Assembly: GCA_022823725.1 (NCBI GenBank)
Contig: JAJEHL010000024.1
Span: 53,767-117,766 of the forward strand
Source of the DNA: Candidatus Latescibacterota bacterium
GTDB taxonomy: Bacteria > Latescibacterota > UBA2968
Direction: 5' to 3'
Length of the DNA stretch: 64,000 bases
In this document: piece by piece, positions 1,990 through 15,598 of the stretch
How positions within the stretch are numbered: the stretch's first letter is position 1
Layout of the letters: every line of letters begins with the position of its first letter
The notes under the pieces: generated by a model
Database searches by the model: none
Told to the model about the DNA's origin: nothing
Seen by the model: only the letters and a program-made list of their open reading frames with translations
Program-made: the position numbers and the translations under genes

Positions 1990-4179
1990 TTACACCAGGC
2001 GACCCTCCCGAATTTCCTGCCCATATACCCGCACTGTTTGTCCATTTGCGAGAGCTATTTTATTCACCCATCCATCGGCCAACTCCATCGCGCCTGCTTC
2101 GGCATCGGTCTCCCCATCAGCAGCGCGTATCCATCCTTCACCAGCTTCAGATTGCACAAAATAAAACGCTCTGCCATCGCGCAACGCAATCTGCCCGGCA
2201 ATCGCAACCCGCCCATTATCGGCCACCGCGGGAATGTATTCCACATGTGCTACTGGAGAGACTTCACCCGCCTTTACGGGATATAAAACATAAGACATAA
2301 GCGTGGGTCCATCGCCTTCTGCTTTAAAAATTGCCGTTGGAATCGGTTCGCACTGATAGGGTCCCCCCCGAGGAATCCATCCCTGCACGGTCGGCTCCTC
2401 CTGTCCACTTACAATACGCACATCCATCGGCTTTGTCGAAATGGCATAAATGCCCAGATTGCTCTCTCCCCCATTGTTCTTTGTCATAACACTGCGCCCA
2501 TTCGCCAGCACCTCGGCATCATCCGCATCCAGATGAAACATCGCTTCATACGTATGAGACGCCTCATCCGAGGGCATGAGAATATCCGTCACAATCCAGA
2601 ACTCCGGTTTCACAAACAAAATCGACCGCGTATGTGTAACCGTCTGATCCCGGTCTGGTCCATATCCCAAATCGTAACTCGCCGACGCATAATCGCATTT
2701 CTCATTTGAAATCCACGTATGCGGCAGCGGCTCGGACACCACGTAATCCTCCCGCGATTTCCCGCGCTGATTCTGCTCCATCCCATCCACCATCACCGTA
2801 TTGTGCGCGCGCGTTGACAGCACATAAGTGCGCCACTGCGACGAATCATAAGGATAATTCCCCGGATCCACCACATGCACGCGACCGTGTGCGTACAGCA
2901 TAATATTCAGCTTATCTTCGTGCTGATGCCCATAGCCAAACGGACCACCGTCAAAAAAGAGATAGAGATCATCCAGTTCCCAGCCCGAACGCATGACAAA
3001 ATGTCCCGCATAGGGAAAAGCGTACGACAGAGTTTGCGGCTTTGTTCCTTCAACACGTCCAGAACCCGCCCATTGAAAATCCGTCCGTTCAGGAAAAAAC
3101 CTGAATCCACCTTGCATGTAAGGCGCGATATCCGTTTGTCCGCCGTCATTGAGCGCGGGCAAACGCAAATTGGGCATCGCCAGATACAAATTGTAGTGAT
3201 ACATCCGCTCCAATTTTGCGACATAATCTGCCGGCAGGGGCAAATCATTCAACCGCGCAATCGCGAGCGCCATCACAAAATTTCGCAAACTCACCTGATG
3301 ATACCCACTCGACAACTCAATCTGCGCGCCATCCGGATAAACCTGCTCATCCAATTCTTCATACAGCGACTGCATTGCAATCTCACGCCAGCTTGCGGCT
3401 TCTTTGAACTCGGGGAACAACGCCCCAACGTGATATTGTCCATTGGCCTGCATCGTCTGCCAGTTGCCACCTCGCGGCCATAGCGTGAGATGCCGCGCGT
3501 GCTCGACCATGCTCTTCACCATCAAACACACGTCGTCATCTCCAAATGTTTCAGACGACAGAAAATAGTAAAACGCCGCAGGCCACGTCTGTCCCATCCG
3601 GATCCCACATTCAATCGTGCGCCAGCAATTCGTGCGATCCGTACCCATCTCTGCATCGTCTTTCCAGGTATTGCCATCCTCACCCACTGGCATCAGCACA
3701 TGTTCAACCCAGTGCCGCATCTGTCGTCTGAACGCATCGGCATATTTTTCATCGCCCGTTTTCCAATACGCCTGCCCCAGCGTGACCCAAAACGGATGGC
3801 GCGACAACTGCCACGTCCATTCCCTGTAATTAATCGGATCCAATTCCCAATTGATTACATCCCCAAACACCTCTTCTACATCGCAACTCACCAGCGTATT
3901 TGCCACAATGCGATCGGCCTTTTCGAGATCAACATCTCTGATCGCGCGATCTCCCACGCGCACCAACTCGACCTCTGCATCCCGGTCTTGTGGCTCTGAC
4001 CGATTTCGCCAATCAGAAAACCATCGCGGATATTCTCGCGTGCGAACGTGTTCTGCAAACGCACGCCGCGCACCCGTCCAATCTCGCGCCTCTACCGCCT
4101 TTTTTACAGTCTGCATGTCCGCACGCGACAAATCGAGCGCCTCAAAAAACGCTTCATCACTCAATCGCGGTCCAATCAT
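1990..4179 (-). CDS. Heparinase II/III family polysaccharide lyase
   Basis: Motifs WRTIECGIR, NWQTM, QVYPDGAQIELSSGYH, GHQHEDKL, AHNTVMVDG. Start placed at the ATG after GGAGGA. Confidence 0.85.
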   Translation of the reverse strand: MIGPRLSDEAFFEALDLSRADMQTVKKAVEARDWTGARRAFAEHVRTREYPRWFSDWRNRSEPQDRDAEVELVRVGDRAIRDVDLEKADRIVANTLVSCDVEEVFGDVINWELDPINYREWTWQLSRHPFWVTLGQAYWKTGDEKYADAFRRQMRHWVEHVLMPVGEDGNTWKDDAEMGTDRTNCWRTIECGIRMGQTWPAAFYYFLSSETFGDDDVCLMVKSMVEHARHLTLWPRGGNWQTMQANGQYHVGALFPEFKEAASWREIAMQSLYEELDEQVYPDGAQIELSSGYHQVSLRNFVMALAIARLNDLPLPADYVAKLERMYHYNLYLAMPNLRLPALNDGGQTDIAPYMQGGFRFFPERTDFQWAGSGRVEGTKPQTLSYAFPYAGHFVMRSGWELDDLYLFFDGGPFGYGHQHEDKLNIMLYAHGRVHVVDPGNYPYDSSQWRTYVLSTRAHNTVMVDGMEQNQRGKSREDYVVSEPLPHTWISNEKCDYASASYDLGYGPDRDQTVTHTRSILFVKPEFWIVTDILMPSDEASHTYEAMFHLDADDAEVLANGRSVMTKNNGGESNLGIYAISTKPMDVRIVSGQEEPTVQGWIPRGGPYQCEPIPTAIFKAEGDGPTLMSYVLYPVKAGEVSPVAHVEYIPAVADNGRVAIAGQIALRDGRAFYFVQSEAGEGWIRAADGETDAEAGAMELADGWVNKIALANGQTVRVYGQEIREGRLV

Positions 4180-10712: not shown

Positions 10713-12638
10713 TTACTTTTTCTTATCATCCACAACTTCATATTCAGCGTCAACAGCCCCATCATCGCCTTGTTTGGGACCTTCTGCACCACCTGGTGGC
10801 GGTTCCCCTGGCGCACCTTGAGGCGGTGCCTCATCTGCTGAGGCTTGTTGATAGAGTTCACTCGCAACCTGATGCCAGACCTGGGTGAGATTTTCATTCG
10901 CCGATTTAATCGCATCGACATTATCCCCCTTGAGGGCGTCTTTGACCTTGTCAACAGCCTCTGTCACTTTGGCCTTTGTTTCATCGCTGACCTTATCGCC
11001 CATCTCCTCCATCTGTTTTTCGGTCTGATGCACCTGCTGCTCGGCCGCATTTTTAATTTCCACAGCCTCGCGTTTCTTTTTGTCTTCGGCGGCATTCGCC
11101 TGTGCGTCATTGACCATTTTGTCAATTTCTGCATCTGACAACCCCGACGAAGCCTCAATGCGAATATTCTGCTCTTTGCCCGTACCCTTGTCTTTCGCCG
11201 AGACATTGAGAATGCCATTTGCATCGATGTCAAATGTGACTTCAATTTGCGGCACACCGCGCGGCGCAGGTGGAATACCATCGAGATGGAACTTGCCAAT
11301 GGTGCGGTTATCTAACGCCATATCGCGCTCCCCCTGCAAGACGTGAATCTCCACCGAGGGCTGACTGTCAGCCGCGGTTGAAAACACTTCGGTCTTCTTT
11401 GACGGAATCGTAGTATTGCGATCAATAAGGCGCGTCATCACACCGCCGAGCGTTTCAATACCCAGCGAGAGCGGCGTCACGTCGAGCAGCAACACATCGG
11501 TCACATCGCCCGAGAGCACACCCGCCTGAATAGCCGCACCAATGGCGACGACTTCATCGGGATTTACTCCCCTATTAGGCTCTTTGCCAAAAACTTCCTG
11601 CACAATTTCCTGCACTTTGGGGATACGCGTTGAGCCGCCCACCAGAATCACTTCATCAATATCAGAAGCCGAAAGACCGGCATCTCGAATAGCCTGTAAA
11701 CAGGGCTGTTTGGTGCGCTCGACGAGATCATCGACGAGTTGCTCAAATTTCGCGCGTGAAAGGTTGACATTGAGATGCTTGGGCCCAGACGCATCAGCCG
11801 TGATAAATGGCAGATTGATATCGGTAGATGCGGAACTCGACAGTTCGCACTTGGCTTTTTCCGCCGCTTCTTTCAGGCGTTGCAAAGCCATGGGATCCTG
11901 GCGCAAATCCACGCTATTCTCTTTCAAAAATTCCTCAGCCAGAAAGTCAATAACGCGCTGGTCAAAGTCATCGCCGCCCAAATGGGTATCACCATTGGTC
12001 GATTTGACTTCAAAGACGCCATCGCCCAGTTCGAGAATAGAGATGTCAAACGTGCCGCCACCGAGGTCGTAAACCGCGATTTTTTCCTCGCTCTTTTTGT
12101 CCAGGCCATACGCCAGGGATGCAGCGGTTGGCTCGTTGACAATGCGCAACACGTCGAGACCCGCAATTTTTCCGGCATCTTTAGTGGCCTGCCGCTGTGC
12201 ATCGTTAAAATATGCGGGAACCGTGACCACAGCCTGCGTAATGGTTTCGCCGAGATAATCCTCAGCGGTTTGCTTCATCTTTTGAAGCACCATCGCCGAA
12301 ATCTCGGGCGGGGTATATGTCTTGTCATCGAGCTGTACAGATGCCAGCCCATTGGCGTCACTTACAATAGTGTAGGGCACTTCGGCAATTTCAGTGCTCA
12401 CCTCTTCTCGGCGACGCCCCATAAATCGCTTGATAGAATAAATAGTCTTGGCCGGATTGGTCACAGCCTGCCGTTTGGCAACCTCACCAACGAGGCGCTC
12501 CCCATCTTGTGCAAATGCAACGACAGAGGGCGTGGTGCGCCCCCCTTCTGAATTTGGAACAACAACCGGGTCGCCGCCTTCCATCACAGCGACACAAGAG
12601 TTGGTTGTCCCCAGATCAATGCCTATTACACTGCTCAT
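10713..12638 (-). CDS. dnaK: Chaperone DnaK
   Basis: [17 protein letters not shown], full-length Hsp70. Confidence 0.99.
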
Positions 12639-13229: not shown

Positions 13230-13300
13230 TTTCAGTCTCTGGTATCGGGTTATACGGCATCTTGAACTGTGGCAACAACAGCCACGGCTGATTCCTGGAG
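13230..13300 (-). repeat. Diverged duplicate of the sucC 3' end (copy A)
   Basis: 60/71 identical by manual alignment to 14412-14482. Encodes LQESAVAVVATVQDAV* versus SucC LQEAAEGVVAAVQNAA*. Confidence 0.9.
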
Positions 13301-13347
13301 TTATGGACAACTGCTCTGGGTAATTCGAGTCTATTTGCGTAATGCGT

Positions 13348-13938
13348 TCAATTGGACGCGCCACTTTCGAGTCCGATATGATCGCAATTGAGATTCCGTG
13401 CTATTGCTTTCGCAAAGTCTGCAATGGCGTGATCAAGCTCGCATTTGTTGCCGTAAGTCGAATCGTGATTGTAATAGCCTTTTTTTTCTTGTACTACCCC
13501 TTCTTTGGCTCGTTGCTTGTCACCATATATCAAATCGCCATCATAAGAAATATCGGCATAATCGGGATTCAGTTCTATCGCCCTATTATGATCTGCAATG
13601 GCACGGTCAACCTCGCCTTTGTCACGATAAATAACTCCGCGATTGTAATAGGCATCGGCATAATCGGGATTCAGTTCTATCACTTTGGTATAGTTTTCAA
13701 TAGCGAGGTCATACTCCTTCTGTGAGTGATAAACCAGGCCGCGCAATAAATAGACATAGAGAGCGAGTTCGCTTTGCTCACCCTGCGCTTCGACGACGCT
13801 TTCGAGTGCCATCAGAAATACGAACATATCACTGTCCTTCTGGTATTCTTCCAGGGCGATTTGGAGATGGGCTATCGCCTCTTCGGGATCGGAAAGTTCT
13901 TCAATTAAGTAATCGCGGTATTTTCTCATTTTTCTCAT
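13348..13938 (-). CDS. Addiction-module antidote N-terminal domain fused to TPR repeats
   Basis: N-terminus YRDYLIEELSDPEEA...ALE...FLMALESVVEAQG, then two clean TPRs (AIENYTKVIELNPDYADAYYNRG) and degenerate ones. ATGA overlap with the toxin gene. Confidence 0.75.
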   Translation of the reverse strand: MRKMRKYRDYLIEELSDPEEAIAHLQIALEEYQKDSDMFVFLMALESVVEAQGEQSELALYVYLLRGLVYHSQKEYDLAIENYTKVIELNPDYADAYYNRGVIYRDKGEVDRAIADHNRAIELNPDYADISYDGDLIYGDKQRAKEGVVQEKKGYYNHDSTYGNKCELDHAIADFAKAIARNLNCDHIGLESGASN

Positions 13939-14273
13939 TTTTGAGACTCCTTGTATTCTCGCCAATAGGCTTTTGCCCGTTCAATATCTCTGACTTGCGA
14001 GGATTTGTCCCCGCCGCAGAGTAGCAAGATAATGGTATCATCTACTTCTCCAAAATAGACGCGATAGCCTGGACCAAATTGGAAACGGAGTTCAAATACA
14101 CCGTCACCAACAGATCTGTAATCGCCTAAATTGCCAGCTTCAAGGTGATAAAACCGAAATTGAATTCGTTTCCGTGTCCTTATATCTCGAAGTGATTTCA
14201 ACCATTCGGTGAAAGGCTCCCGACCATTTGGATCACAATAGGTTTGTAGCTCTCTTGGTTGTGCAGCAAGCAT
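13935..14273 (-). CDS. RelE/ParE/HigB-family addiction module toxin
   Basis: PFTEWLKSLRD, GNLGDYRSVGDGVFELRFQFGPGYRVYF, LLCGGDKSSQ. Confidence 0.92.
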   Translation of the reverse strand: MLAAQPRELQTYCDPNGREPFTEWLKSLRDIRTRKRIQFRFYHLEAGNLGDYRSVGDGVFELRFQFGPGYRVYFGEVDDTIILLLCGGDKSSQVRDIERAKAYWREYKESQK

Positions 14274-14372
14274 TGTTGATTTCTTAGCTGTATGTTCAAA
14301 CGGTGAAGAGCATCTGACAATCAATGGGAGAAGTCCGTTATATTTCTCCTGTCGTGTTTGGACTAATTTCCC

Positions 14373-14399
14373 CTTTGTGCCTTCTGTGCTTCTTGTGGC
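14373..14399 (-). repeat. Three imperfect 9-bp tandem repeats (GCCACAAGA AGCACAGAA GGCACAAAG)
   Basis: Read directly, located at the border of the TA insert. Confidence 0.5.
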
Positions 14400-14411
14400 G
14401 ATTCCTGTTAT

Positions 14412-14482
14412 TTTCAGGCTCTGGTATCGGGTTATGCGGCATTTTGAACCGCGGCAACAACGCCTTCGGCGGCTTCCTGGAG
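14412..14482 (-). repeat. sucC 3' end plus 20 bp downstream (copy B of the duplication)
   Basis: Direct repeat of 13230-13300. Confidence 0.9.
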
Positions 14483-15598
14483 CTTGCGGGCAACGGTAAA
14501 TTCAAGACCTGAATTTTCGAGAATTTGCGCGCCTTCTTCGGCGTTGGTCCCCTGCAATCGCACCACCAGAGGCACATTGATCTCGATATCTTCAAGCGCG
14601 GCAACAACGCCTTCGGCCACGCGATCGCAGCGCACAATACCGCCAAAAATATTGATCAGCACCGCTTTGACCGATTCGTCAGACGTGAGAATACGCATCG
14701 CATTTTTGACGCGCTCGACATTGGTTCCCCCACCAACATCGAGAAAGTTAGCCGGTGACGACCCCGCGTATTTGACAATATCCATCGTAGCCATCGCCAG
14801 ACCTGCGCCATTGACCATACAGCCGACTTCGCCGTCGAGTTTGATATAATTGAGATCGTATTTTGAGGCCTCGACTTCGAGCGGATCTTCCTCGTCAACA
14901 TCGCGCAATTCATAGATATCCGAATGGCGATACATCGCACTATCATCGAAATTCATCTTAGCATCCAGAGCCAGAACCTCCCCACTTTTGGACACCACGA
15001 GGGGATTGATTTCTGCGAGCGAACAATCGGTCTCCTCATAAGCTCTGTAAAGAGCAGAGATGAATGCGACCCCCTGTTTGATTTGATCGCCTTCAAGCCC
15101 CAGACCAAGTGCGAGACGCCGTGCCTGAAAGGGCTGAAGCCCCACGCCTGGATGAACGACCTCTTTGAGAATCTTTTCCGGAGTCGTTGCAGCCACCTCT
15201 TCAATGTCCATGCCGCCCGCACGGGAAGCCATAACAACCAGACGCGACCGCGCGCGGTCCAGCACAATGCCCAGGTACAATTCTCGGTCAATATCCGTCG
15301 CATTTTCCACCCAAACGGATTTGACTTTTTGACCTTCAGAACCCGTTTGCGGAGTAACGAGTTGCATACCAATAATTTCGGATGCCGCTTCTCTGGCTTC
15401 GGCAGGATCGGCAGCGAGTTTAATACCGCCCCCTTTTCCGCGACCACCTGCGTGGATCTGCGCTTTGACAACCACTGCACCGCCGAGGTCTTTGGCAATA
15501 GCTTCGGCCTCTTCGGGCGTACGAGCAACTGCGCCATTTGGCACGGGCACACCAAAAGACCTGAGAATTTCTTTAGCCTGATATTCGTGAATTTTCAT
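14432..15598 (-). CDS. sucC: Succinyl-CoA ligase (ADP-forming) beta subunit
   Basis: MKIHEYQAK, KAQIHAGGRGKGGG, NGAGLAMATMD, NIFGGIVRCD. Confidence 0.98.
   Translation of the reverse strand: MKIHEYQAKEILRSFGVPVPNGAVARTPEEAEAIAKDLGGAVVVKAQIHAGGRGKGGGIKLAADPAEAREAASEIIGMQLVTPQTGSEGQKVKSVWVENATDIDRELYLGIVLDRARSRLVVMASRAGGMDIEEVAATTPEKILKEVVHPGVGLQPFQARRLALGLGLEGDQIKQGVAFISALYRAYEETDCSLAEINPLVVSKSGEVLALDAKMNFDDSAMYRHSDIYELRDVDEEDPLEVEASKYDLNYIKLDGEVGCMVNGAGLAMATMDIVKYAGSSPANFLDVGGGTNVERVKNAMRILTSDESVKAVLINIFGGIVRCDRVAEGVVAALEDIEINVPLVVRLQGTNAEEGAQILENSGLEFTVARKLQEAAEGVVAAVQNAA

Follow-up and report, generated by a model that had tools for sequence, protein, structure and literature searches.

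A probable toxin-antitoxin cassette in Candidatus Latescibacterota whose antitoxin carries tetratricopeptide repeats where a DNA-binding domain is expected

The DNA analysed here, called the window, is a stretch of 64,000 nucleotides from a Candidatus Latescibacterota bacterium (GenBank assembly GCA_022823725.1, contig JAJEHL010000024.1, positions 53,767 to 117,766). Its minus strand carries two adjacent, co-oriented and overlapping small genes, a toxin gene followed by an antitoxin-like gene. Since one of them belongs to a known toxin family, the pair has the form of a type II toxin-antitoxin (TA) system. The antitoxin-like protein is composed of an antidote N-terminal domain (N-domain), two tetratricopeptide repeats (TPRs) and a degenerate tail. 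An earlier note, made from the letters of this DNA, had described an antidote head, TPRs where the helix-turn-helix (HTH) belongs, and coupling to a RelE/HigB toxin, and this overall architecture was read correctly. As a whole, the locus is best explained as a toxin-first type II TA cassette with a TPR-tailed antitoxin of a clade-restricted family, a reading to which we give a probability of about 0.75.

The toxin gene and the antitoxin-like gene

The toxin matches TIGR02683, the NCBIfam model for a family of RelE/ParE type II toxins, with 120.4 bits (cut-off 62.85) over model positions 5-95 of 95. It has every one of the 12 residues that are invariant in an alignment of 30 toxins and, judged by its family, presumably cleaves mRNA in a ribosome-dependent manner. 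It is 59% identical to the toxin of a canonical pair on contig C33 of the same genome, and its ratio of nonsynonymous to synonymous substitution rates (dN/dS) against the syntenic toxin at locus L075 is 0.26. A profile of the 30 toxins reached PDB chain 6af3, deposited as 'HigB toxin', with a marginal E of 0.02; phmmer searches of PDB sequences with the toxin and with the canonical antidote gave no match at E <= 1. PADLOC returned no meaningful match for either of the window's two proteins. The start codon of the antitoxin overlaps the stop codon of the toxin as ATGA (ATG at 13938-13936, TGA at 13937-13935). This overlap and the TIGR02683 match confirm the translational coupling to a RelE/HigB toxin that the earlier note had proposed.

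The genome encodes five TIGR02683 matches and two matches to TIGR02684, the model of the canonical antidote. The four further toxin paralogs lie on contigs C25, C33, C36 and C12 (loci L001, L003, L004 and L005). Two of them are paired with canonical PF21716 antidotes, and the paralog on C36 is paired with a different HTH antitoxin. A third, weaker N-domain-like match lies near the end of contig C41 (positions 1313-1480; 36% over 56 amino acids).

The head of the antitoxin is related to the canonical antidote. Residues 1-75 share 34 identities of 75 (45%; BLASTP E 1e-18) with the 110-amino acid antidote paralog on C33, which itself matches PF21716 and TIGR02684. The antidote helices had been traced up to the motif VEAQG; they are there, and the similarity passes this motif by a few residues, to about ...SELA, ending where the HTH of the paralog begins. 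An exhaustive phmmer search with residues 1-60 as the query found 363 relatives at E <= 0.001, and those inspected include ordinary HTH antidotes of ~100 amino acids plus many longer proteins. Two relatives (L019 and L020) have sub-threshold PF21716 matches at model positions 9-45 and 9-54. The models PF21716 and TIGR02684 include the C-terminal HTH, and homology of the window's protein to this family is limited to the N half. In Pfam and NCBIfam scans, the whole protein matched neither model and no other antitoxin, HTH or DNA-binding family. In the predicted structure, the N-domain has a short strand at about residues 4-8 and helices at residues 7-15, 18-35 and 38-52. The antitoxin thus appears to have kept the N-terminal ~55 residues of an antidote, with an Xre-type HTH swapped for TPRs at one conserved junction.

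Structure prediction of the complex, a check that the earlier note had suggested, supports, without proving, binding of the toxin by the antitoxin. The predicted pair scored 0.87, against 0.11 for the best of three controls. The mark applied to this score is reached by 58 of 80 solved complexes and by 2 of 110 mismatched pairs, and is approximate here, because the alignments (30 toxins, 35 antitoxins) were our own. Across runs, at least 82% of contacts agree, and the partner has a predicted local confidence (pLDDT) of at least 69. All confident antitoxin contacts fall within residues 1-44, with no TPR residue among them. The tightest contacts are between antitoxin residues 5-8 and toxin residues 9-11, and between antitoxin helix residues 23-28 and 40-44 and toxin residues 35-42. 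The model therefore places the N-domain on the toxin and leaves the TPRs free.

The TPRs that the earlier note had placed behind the antidote head, with their 102-bp periodicity, are real. Pfam TPR_1 matches with 89.4 bits (E 6.8e-26) in two stretches, residues 97-130 being matched in a 199-amino acid reading of the protein. A hidden Markov model (HMM) of the repeat built here finds units at residues 60-92 and 93-126 and a partial unit at residues 155-180. At the DNA level, positions 13517-13614 and 13619-13716 are 72% identical and share an identical 28-nucleotide core. AlphaFold2, run on a 35-row alignment, gave a mean pLDDT of 70.7. It predicts two TPR hairpins (helices 57-72, 76-89, 94-106 and 110-123; block pLDDT 78-93) and a capping helix to residue 137, followed by a helix at residues 165-180 and a disordered end. 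Sequence and predicted fold are those of a TPR protein (34-residue helix-turn-helix repeats in a superhelix), with only two repeats intact: Foldseek matched consensus TPR proteins with TM-scores of 0.78-0.84 (normalised to the target), and also MamA and the TPRs of O-GlcNAc transferase. Its alignments, among them those to three-repeat consensus TPR proteins, cover 105-122 columns. As this exceeds two repeats plus a cap, the last two helices of the N-domain seem to pack against TPR1 in the manner of an additional repeat.

The degeneration that had been noted after the first repeats was also found. Compared to P0003, a relative with four clean repeats, the third TPR has in-frame losses of 3 and 7 residues, and of the fourth only the second helix is well kept. 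A frameshift that would restore the third TPR was sought, and neither of the alternative frames, both full of stops, reads like a TPR. The pLDDT falls below 50 at residues 133-166 and 184-196, so that the tail is disordered in the model. The short variants P0004 and L075 have retained this tail. In the window's copy, the TPR module has come down to two intact repeats, followed by a tail under weak constraint that is disordered in part.

A tblastn search for a TPR donor in the same genome found at best a match of 44% over 72 amino acids; therefore, there is no recent donor. Long TPR arrays of relatives are 70-78% identical to TPR1-2 in nucleotides (e.g., G011:C1:1397149-1397986, G006:C1:4083836-4086634 and G005:C23:13247-14539), and the genome has a TPR array of its own at C49:218053-221628. 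Gain and loss of TPRs by recombination with such arrays is plausible.

Table 1. Window coordinates of the cassette, its parts and its flanking features
Feature	Position	Strand	Basis or remark
Toxin gene, 112 aa, RelE/HigB-type, TIGR02683 HI1419-like	13935..14273	-	TIGR02683 match
Antitoxin-like gene, 196 aa, start overlapping toxin stop (ATGA)	13348..13938	-	Start MRKMRKYRDY common to homologs
N-domain, residues 1-58, N half of HI1420/PF21716 antidote; predicted toxin-binding part	13765..13938	-	BLASTP, phmmer, complex model, dN/dS 0.12
TPR1 (residues 59-92) and TPR2 (residues 93-126), both intact	13561..13764	-	Pfam TPR_1, 102-nt repeat, AlphaFold2 helices, Foldseek
Degenerate tail, residues 127-196: capping helix, broken TPR3, half TPR4, disordered end	13351..13560	-	Alignment to P0003, pLDDT, dN/dS 0.40
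Spacer from sucC stop to toxin start, presumed promoter region	14274..14431	-	
Direct repeat, sucC-proximal copy: last 48 nt of sucC, stop codon, 20 nt beyond	14412..14482		
Direct repeat, distal copy, 3' of antitoxin gene; non-coding duplicate of sucC 3' end	13230..13300		Reads LQESAVAVVATVQDAV*
sucC (context), with the insertion at its 3' end	14432..15598	-	NF001913, 576 bits
dnaK (context, outside the system)	10713..12638	-	

Recurrence, toxin linkage and selection in the family

The combination of N-domain and TPRs recurs. Among the best 150 representative N-domain matches, 13 carry a TPR. A search scored on residues 1-95 gave 84 proteins after clustering at 90% identity, and 77 of them have the N-domain and at least one TPR. 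Within these 77, one repeat is found in 17 proteins, two in 46, three in 9 and four to six in 5; the rest of the 84 are two proteins with the N-domain only and five plain TPR proteins. Among 80 loci fetched from species-representative genomes, 27 combine N-domain and TPRs; 22 of these are in records titled Poribacteria and 5 in records with a name beginning in Latescibacter. The other loci of the 80 come from many phyla and have the N-domain with different C-termini. A fusion unique to this genome with a dN/dS near 1, which the earlier note had named as refuting its idea, is not what was found: the fusion recurs as just described, and its dN/dS is 0.31. This antitoxin architecture, previously unannotated, defines a family that counts at least 77 clusters and occurs in sponge-associated Poribacteria and Latescibacterota. 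Sources name its proteins only as 'TPR repeat protein' or 'Flp pilus assembly protein TadD'.

Throughout the 35-sequence alignment, N-domain and TPRs meet at one conserved junction, EAQ..(E)L...VYLL.G. Proteins reach lengths of 617, 862 and 927 amino acids, and L051-L054, L057, L059 and L072 have arrays of 9-14 repeats. The 196-amino acid form of the window occurs in six 90%-identity clusters (P0153-P0157 and P0160). In a tree of the N-domain, which is short and weakly resolved, all 28 TPR rows fall within one 36-row subtree (SH-aLRT 90), and at least five label changes are needed. The TPR-bearing forms may have a single origin. All 10 sequencing runs that hold at least half of the window's words are sponge metagenomes from three studies, one of which is possibly the source. 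Given independent runs from several studies, it is unlikely that the junction of N-domain and TPR is an assembly artefact.

The search for this architecture and its linkage to the toxin, which the earlier note had recommended, found an intact toxin open reading frame (ORF) directly upstream in 15 of the 27 loci with N-domain and TPRs. The overlap is ATGA in nine of these and 14 nucleotides long in six. Remnants or pseudogenes of the toxin lie at four loci (L049, L053, L062 and L069), and eight loci have none. The family is therefore toxin-linked, although many loci have lost the toxin and kept a complete antitoxin ORF. At L069, the toxin (2691-3002) has two in-frame stops and stands beside an intact TPR-antitoxin ORF. 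From such loci, the antitoxin evidently outlives its toxin.

Selection was measured on the syntenic ortholog L008, from a related Latescibacteria metagenome-assembled genome, which is 82% identical to the window's antitoxin with no indels or stops at a synonymous divergence (dS) of 0.28. The dN/dS is 0.31 overall, 0.12 in the N-domain, 0.36 in TPR1-2 and 0.40 in the tail, and is below 1 in every part by Fisher's test (p of 1.2e-5, 5e-4, 0.023 and 0.013, respectively). Neighbouring genes at a similar dS have values of 0.04-0.08 (sucC 0.045, dnaK 0.037, fmdB and an enolase-superfamily gene). In five toxin-linked ortholog pairs of Poribacteria, the dN/dS of the TPR region is 0.05-0.09. The N-domain has 0.06-0.15 in four of these pairs and is undefined in L067/L073, where dS is saturated; the toxin has 0.04-0.13 in four, tails have 0.14-0.52 and long arrays 0.25-0.41. 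The toxin value of the pair L068/L069, 0.83, is meaningless and was dropped from the range because of the two in-frame stops in the L069 toxin. The antitoxin of L069 has a dN/dS of 0.11 against L068.

Two relatives are fused to an ATPase. In L058 (862 amino acids) and L062 (927 amino acids), ~11-12 TPRs are followed by an AAA_15/AAA_21 ATPase in one ORF. The best PADLOC models for their C-terminal 400 residues are NsnB (177 and 164 bits, respectively), PDC-M55A, HEC-03B and AriA, and the NsnB match spans positions 2-333 of 345. At L058 (2630-6140), the toxin is intact and coupled through ATGA; upstream lies a type IIG restriction-modification gene (PADLOC 481 bits), and downstream an overlapping 184-amino acid ORF with no Pfam or PADLOC match. 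L062 (3001-5781) has only a 30-amino acid remnant of the toxin. The defence context was inspected for L058 and its neighbours. A type I specificity subunit is fused to the N-domain clade in L093:3001-4500 and P0039; the protein of L093 is 500 amino acids long, matches Methylase_S with an E of 3.7e-41 and has no adjacent toxin.

The insertion at sucC, its variants and its upstream region

A DNA search of 30 relatives and pairwise alignment underlie the analysis of the site. The cassette is a 1182-bp (1.18-kb) insertion at the 3' end of sucC, bracketed by a 71-nucleotide direct repeat whose copies are 85% identical. The proximal copy, which forms the functional 3' end of sucC, matches the empty sites L047, L039 and L041 with 94-97% identity over 111-114 nucleotides. 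The distal copy is 84-86% identical to the same sites and runs on into the ancestral downstream flank. At least seven genomes of the genus have the empty site, in which the end of sucC is followed by a spacer and fmdB (G003, G007, G009, G010, G012, G015 and G017). Flanking direct repeats were sought at five other loci, and none were found except internal TPR repeats; the 71-nucleotide duplication is therefore specific to the sucC site. It is unusually long for a target duplication, and the 1.18 kb hold no integrase. In four more genomes of the genus (G004, G005, G006 and G008), the end of sucC and the spacer are contiguous, with fmdB 4-6 kb away; because of these, the gap between sucC and fmdB looks like an insertion hot spot. 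Within sucC, a 30-nucleotide near-repeat (14441-14470 and 14588-14617; 90% identical, both encoding AEGVVAA) overlaps the duplicated segment in part.

Three genomes share the insertion in three states. The window has the full cassette. G014, which contains L008, lacks the toxin together with the spacer before it (exactly 13942-14431), so that the antitoxin starts 2 nucleotides behind the sucC stop. In G002, the genome of L075, the same site has an intact 112-amino acid toxin with the ATGA overlap and an antitoxin in which a clean 82-codon deletion removes TPR1-2. This short form without TPR1-2 makes up four 90%-identity clusters (P0004 and P0223-P0225). Because it occurs with an intact toxin, TPR1-2 is, judged from these genomes, dispensable for keeping the toxin.

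The earlier note named DnaK, encoded just downstream, as a possible partner of the TPRs. The gene is downstream and on the same strand, at ~700 nucleotides, with an FmdB zinc-ribbon gene in between. A DnaK partnership is not supported, as the neighbourhood exists without the cassette and dnaK lies within 3 kb of a family gene in only 2 of the 80 loci, both at this syntenic site. Since the cassette is an insertion into a sucC-fmdB-dnaK neighbourhood, its nearness to dnaK is accidental. TPR clamps for Hsp70 and Hsp90 are three-repeat carboxylate clamps that bind chaperones ending in EEVD. The window's antitoxin has only two intact repeats, and the DnaK encoded here ends in ...EVVDDKKK rather than in an EEVD type of terminus.

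Upstream of the toxin, no inverted repeat of at least 8 nucleotides was found in 14250-14450, which covers the 158 nucleotides before the gene; at both canonical paralog loci, palindromes directly precede the toxin genes. A promoter scan of this region found no sigma-70-like site on the minus strand, and the scan may not fit this phylum. A DNA-binding autoregulator would have an HTH or other DNA-binding family and an operator, and neither such a family nor an inverted repeat was detected. The loss of autorepression predicted by the earlier note is plausible on these grounds, and the pair is probably not autorepressed in the classical way.

One 1316-nucleotide contig of a sponge metatranscriptome library, produced in a different study from the likely source, covers 13255-14569, from the end of sucC through toxin and antitoxin, with three differences and confirms the assembly. 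In another RNA library of that study, two short contigs match exactly. The contigs of the two libraries are compatible with expression and read-through from sucC. A further RNA run (X15) leaves parts of the stretch without cover and has no weight either way.

What the repeats may do

Under the reading preferred here, the N-domain would clamp and neutralise the toxin, as homology and the predicted complex suggest. The TPR part would sit off the toxin and would not be needed for neutralisation, to judge from the predicted interface and the natural TPR-less variant, and most likely docks the antitoxin to another protein.

Several points weigh against this reading. The toxin falls below the Pfam threshold for PF05973 (Gp49/HigB-like), with 21.2 bits against a gathering cut-off of 23.9. 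The N part alone (residues 1-63) and the tail matched nothing relevant among the Pfam and NCBIfam HMMs, and it is therefore pairwise and phmmer similarity that carries the family assignment. Because sequence searches found no solved structure for the family of either partner, neutralisation by the N half is inferred. The complex score is the model's own confidence, obtained from our own alignments. All relatives are metagenome-assembled genomes. The toxin is lost or decayed in 12 of the 27 loci, such that the module is often no working pair. In the window's copy, the constraint on the TPRs and tail is weak, with few substitutions behind the values, and L008, used in that comparison, has lost its toxin, which may itself relax selection. 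The absence of a promoter or palindrome is weak evidence in a phylum with unknown promoters, and the RNA-library contigs do not prove transcription.

One alternative is that the TPRs are a structural replacement only. They would provide a stable or self-associating fold in place of the dimerising HTH, serving solubility, stoichiometry or protease resistance with no external ligand. This fits a conserved family core of N-domain and TPR1, beyond which there is free variation (more TPRs, an unrelated 75-residue helical domain or nothing), and the packing of the N-domain helices on TPR1 in the model. It also fits the quite different C-termini of other members of the N-domain clade, which include an HTH, HsdS and an unassigned tail. 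However, arrays of 9-14 repeats and ATPase fusions exceed what a stabilising cap needs, and the variant without TPR1-2 persists with its toxin in four clusters. We regard this explanation as possible, if on the unlikely side.

The earlier note favoured a sensor-gated system. In such a system, docking of a trigger to the TPRs, be it a protein of a phage or of the sponge host or a chaperone, would free or activate the toxin, and the pair would serve in abortive infection or as a switch under stress. In its favour, the predicted complex leaves the TPRs off the toxin. Moreover, the last two N-domain helices appear to stack on TPR1, although only two repeats and a capping helix are TPR by sequence, and binding of a ligand could therefore plausibly pass to the N-domain. 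Relatives with 9-14 repeats, a TPR region as constrained as the toxin in Poribacteria, and the NsnB/AriA-like ATPase of L058 and L062, the former beside its restriction-modification gene, point the same way. The contexts of L058 and L093 are single examples that lend a sensor or defence role some substance for the family. Against it, the repeat number varies from <1 to ~14 across the family, an intact toxin persists beside the variant without TPR1-2, this copy has a broken TPR3 and a tail predicted to be disordered, and the DnaK evidence given above is unfavourable. In this sub-lineage, the TPR part is weakly constrained and partly decayed. The sensor-gated system is doubtful here.

A wider form of this idea concerns the family as a whole. 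In it, the TPRs, with or without the NsnB/AriA-like ATPase, would sense a phage or sponge-host protein, and a signal to the stacked N-domain helices would release the toxin. We hold such a ligand-gated switch to be unlikely. If true, it would be a case of Rap-like repeat-domain allostery in a TA pair, and sponge symbionts would have a new type of module for defence or for sensing the host, with the window's copy as a reduced member.

The window's copy could instead be a decaying remnant, a chimera en route to loss in which the N-domain alone matters, if anything, and the TPRs and tail drift. The broken TPR3, the half-size TPR4 and the low pLDDT of the tail would be expected of a remnant. So would the dN/dS of 0.36-0.40 in the TPRs and tail beside 0.04-0.08 in neighbouring housekeeping genes, the three states of the insertion in three genomes, and the toxins lost or broken in the family. 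Yet dN/dS is significantly below 1 in TPR1-2 and the tail as in every other part, no indel or stop separates the copy from L008 over a dS of 0.28, and the 196-amino acid form recurs in six clusters. In addition, the odd tail is itself conserved, short variants included, and contigs over both genes are present in two RNA libraries. Decay is an improbable explanation.

Quite improbable is an anti-addiction or orphan antitoxin, kept mainly against related toxins from mobile elements or paralogs: eight of the 27 loci without an adjacent toxin and four with remnants have a whole antitoxin ORF, the L069 antitoxin is constrained beside its broken toxin, the L008 gene lies directly behind sucC with toxin and spacer cleanly gone, and the window's genome has four more toxin paralogs, but the cognate toxin here is intact and translationally coupled, and the paralog N-domains are only 48% identical.

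The preferred toxin-first cassette has its closest counterpart in HI1419/HI1420-type pairs, two of which are in the same genome. We take the families named COG3657 and COG3636 to be those of TIGR02683 and TIGR02684 (PF21716). The pair of a COG3657 RelE protein and a COG3636 HTH protein is listed in PMC2701414, and 'TPR' does not occur in the accessible part of that paper. Shared features are the toxin family, the toxin-first overlapping genes and the N-terminal ~55 residues of the antitoxin. The window's antitoxin differs in having TPRs, in lacking the HTH half, in being unseen by HMMs and in having no upstream palindrome.

In HigA2 of Vibrio cholerae, the disordered neutralising region is reportedly N-terminal, and the C-terminal domain is a DNA-binding HTH. 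As in the HigB2-HigA2 pair, the window's antitoxin would have an N-terminal neutralising segment separate from its C-terminal domain. According to the accessible part of PMC11006873, an intrinsically disordered region neutralises HigB2 by folding upon binding. In contrast to the window's toxin, HigB2 stands under PF06296 in Table 1 of PMC11980606, in the part at hand, and the window's proteins had no PDB sequence match.

In toxin-antitoxin-chaperone (TAC) systems, a C-terminal extension ties the antitoxin to a chaperone, and a third gene of the operon encodes a SecB-like chaperone. The gp49/HigB TAC modules are the nearest precedent for the chaperone idea; the extension here is a TPR array and not a chaperone-addiction tail. 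Between the antitoxin stop (13348) and fmdB (13007) there is no third gene, only the 71-nucleotide sucC remnant, and the window's toxin is below the PF05973 cut-off. As far as the accessible part of PMC11980606 goes, PF05973 toxins are ribosome-dependent mRNases, and one TAC module acts in abortive infection. The main text of this 2025 survey of mono- and multidomain RelE/ParE toxins, in the same part, has neither 'TPR' nor 'tetratricopeptide'. Full-text literature searches found no description of a TPR-bearing antitoxin.

Rap/RNPP receptors of Firmicutes have an N-terminal helical effector-binding domain, then 5-9 repeats, and control response regulators. When a peptide binds in the TPR groove of a Rap protein, the N-terminal helices are rearranged and let go of the target. 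A small N-terminal helical domain followed by TPRs is common to these receptors and to the window's antitoxin. They are not known to be related in sequence, the receptors are not among the listed Foldseek matches, and their targets are response regulators rather than toxins. A likeness to AAA_15/AAA_21 defence ATPases (NsnB, and AriA of PARIS) is limited to L058 and L062, as the window's protein has no ATPase. A fusion of an antitoxin head, a TPR array and an NsnB/AriA-type ATPase was not found in the papers searched.

A usual type II antitoxin combines a toxin-binding segment with a DNA-binding domain that represses the operon. Here, the toxin-binding segment is kept, and the DNA-binding half appears to be swapped for a protein-interaction array that differs in length between members and sometimes has a defence-type ATPase behind it. 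Should the TPRs recognise a trigger, the family would be a clean modular test case for an antitoxin that senses a protein signal, and natural variants exist with or without TPRs, toxin or ATPase. Even if the TPRs are only structural, the N half of the HI1420-type antidote would be an independent, portable neutralising module. Since current HMMs miss these antitoxins, counts of TA systems in sponge symbionts are underestimates.

Other relatives carry the 75-residue helical domain mentioned above (...LPEESRDxLAEQL...EEYRAGRT...), which matched no NCBIfam model. It follows the N-domain and TPR1 in proteins of 168 amino acids (L009/L060, L010/L061 and L011/L064), and is joined straight to the N-domain, without TPR1, in a 102-amino acid form (L021/L080).

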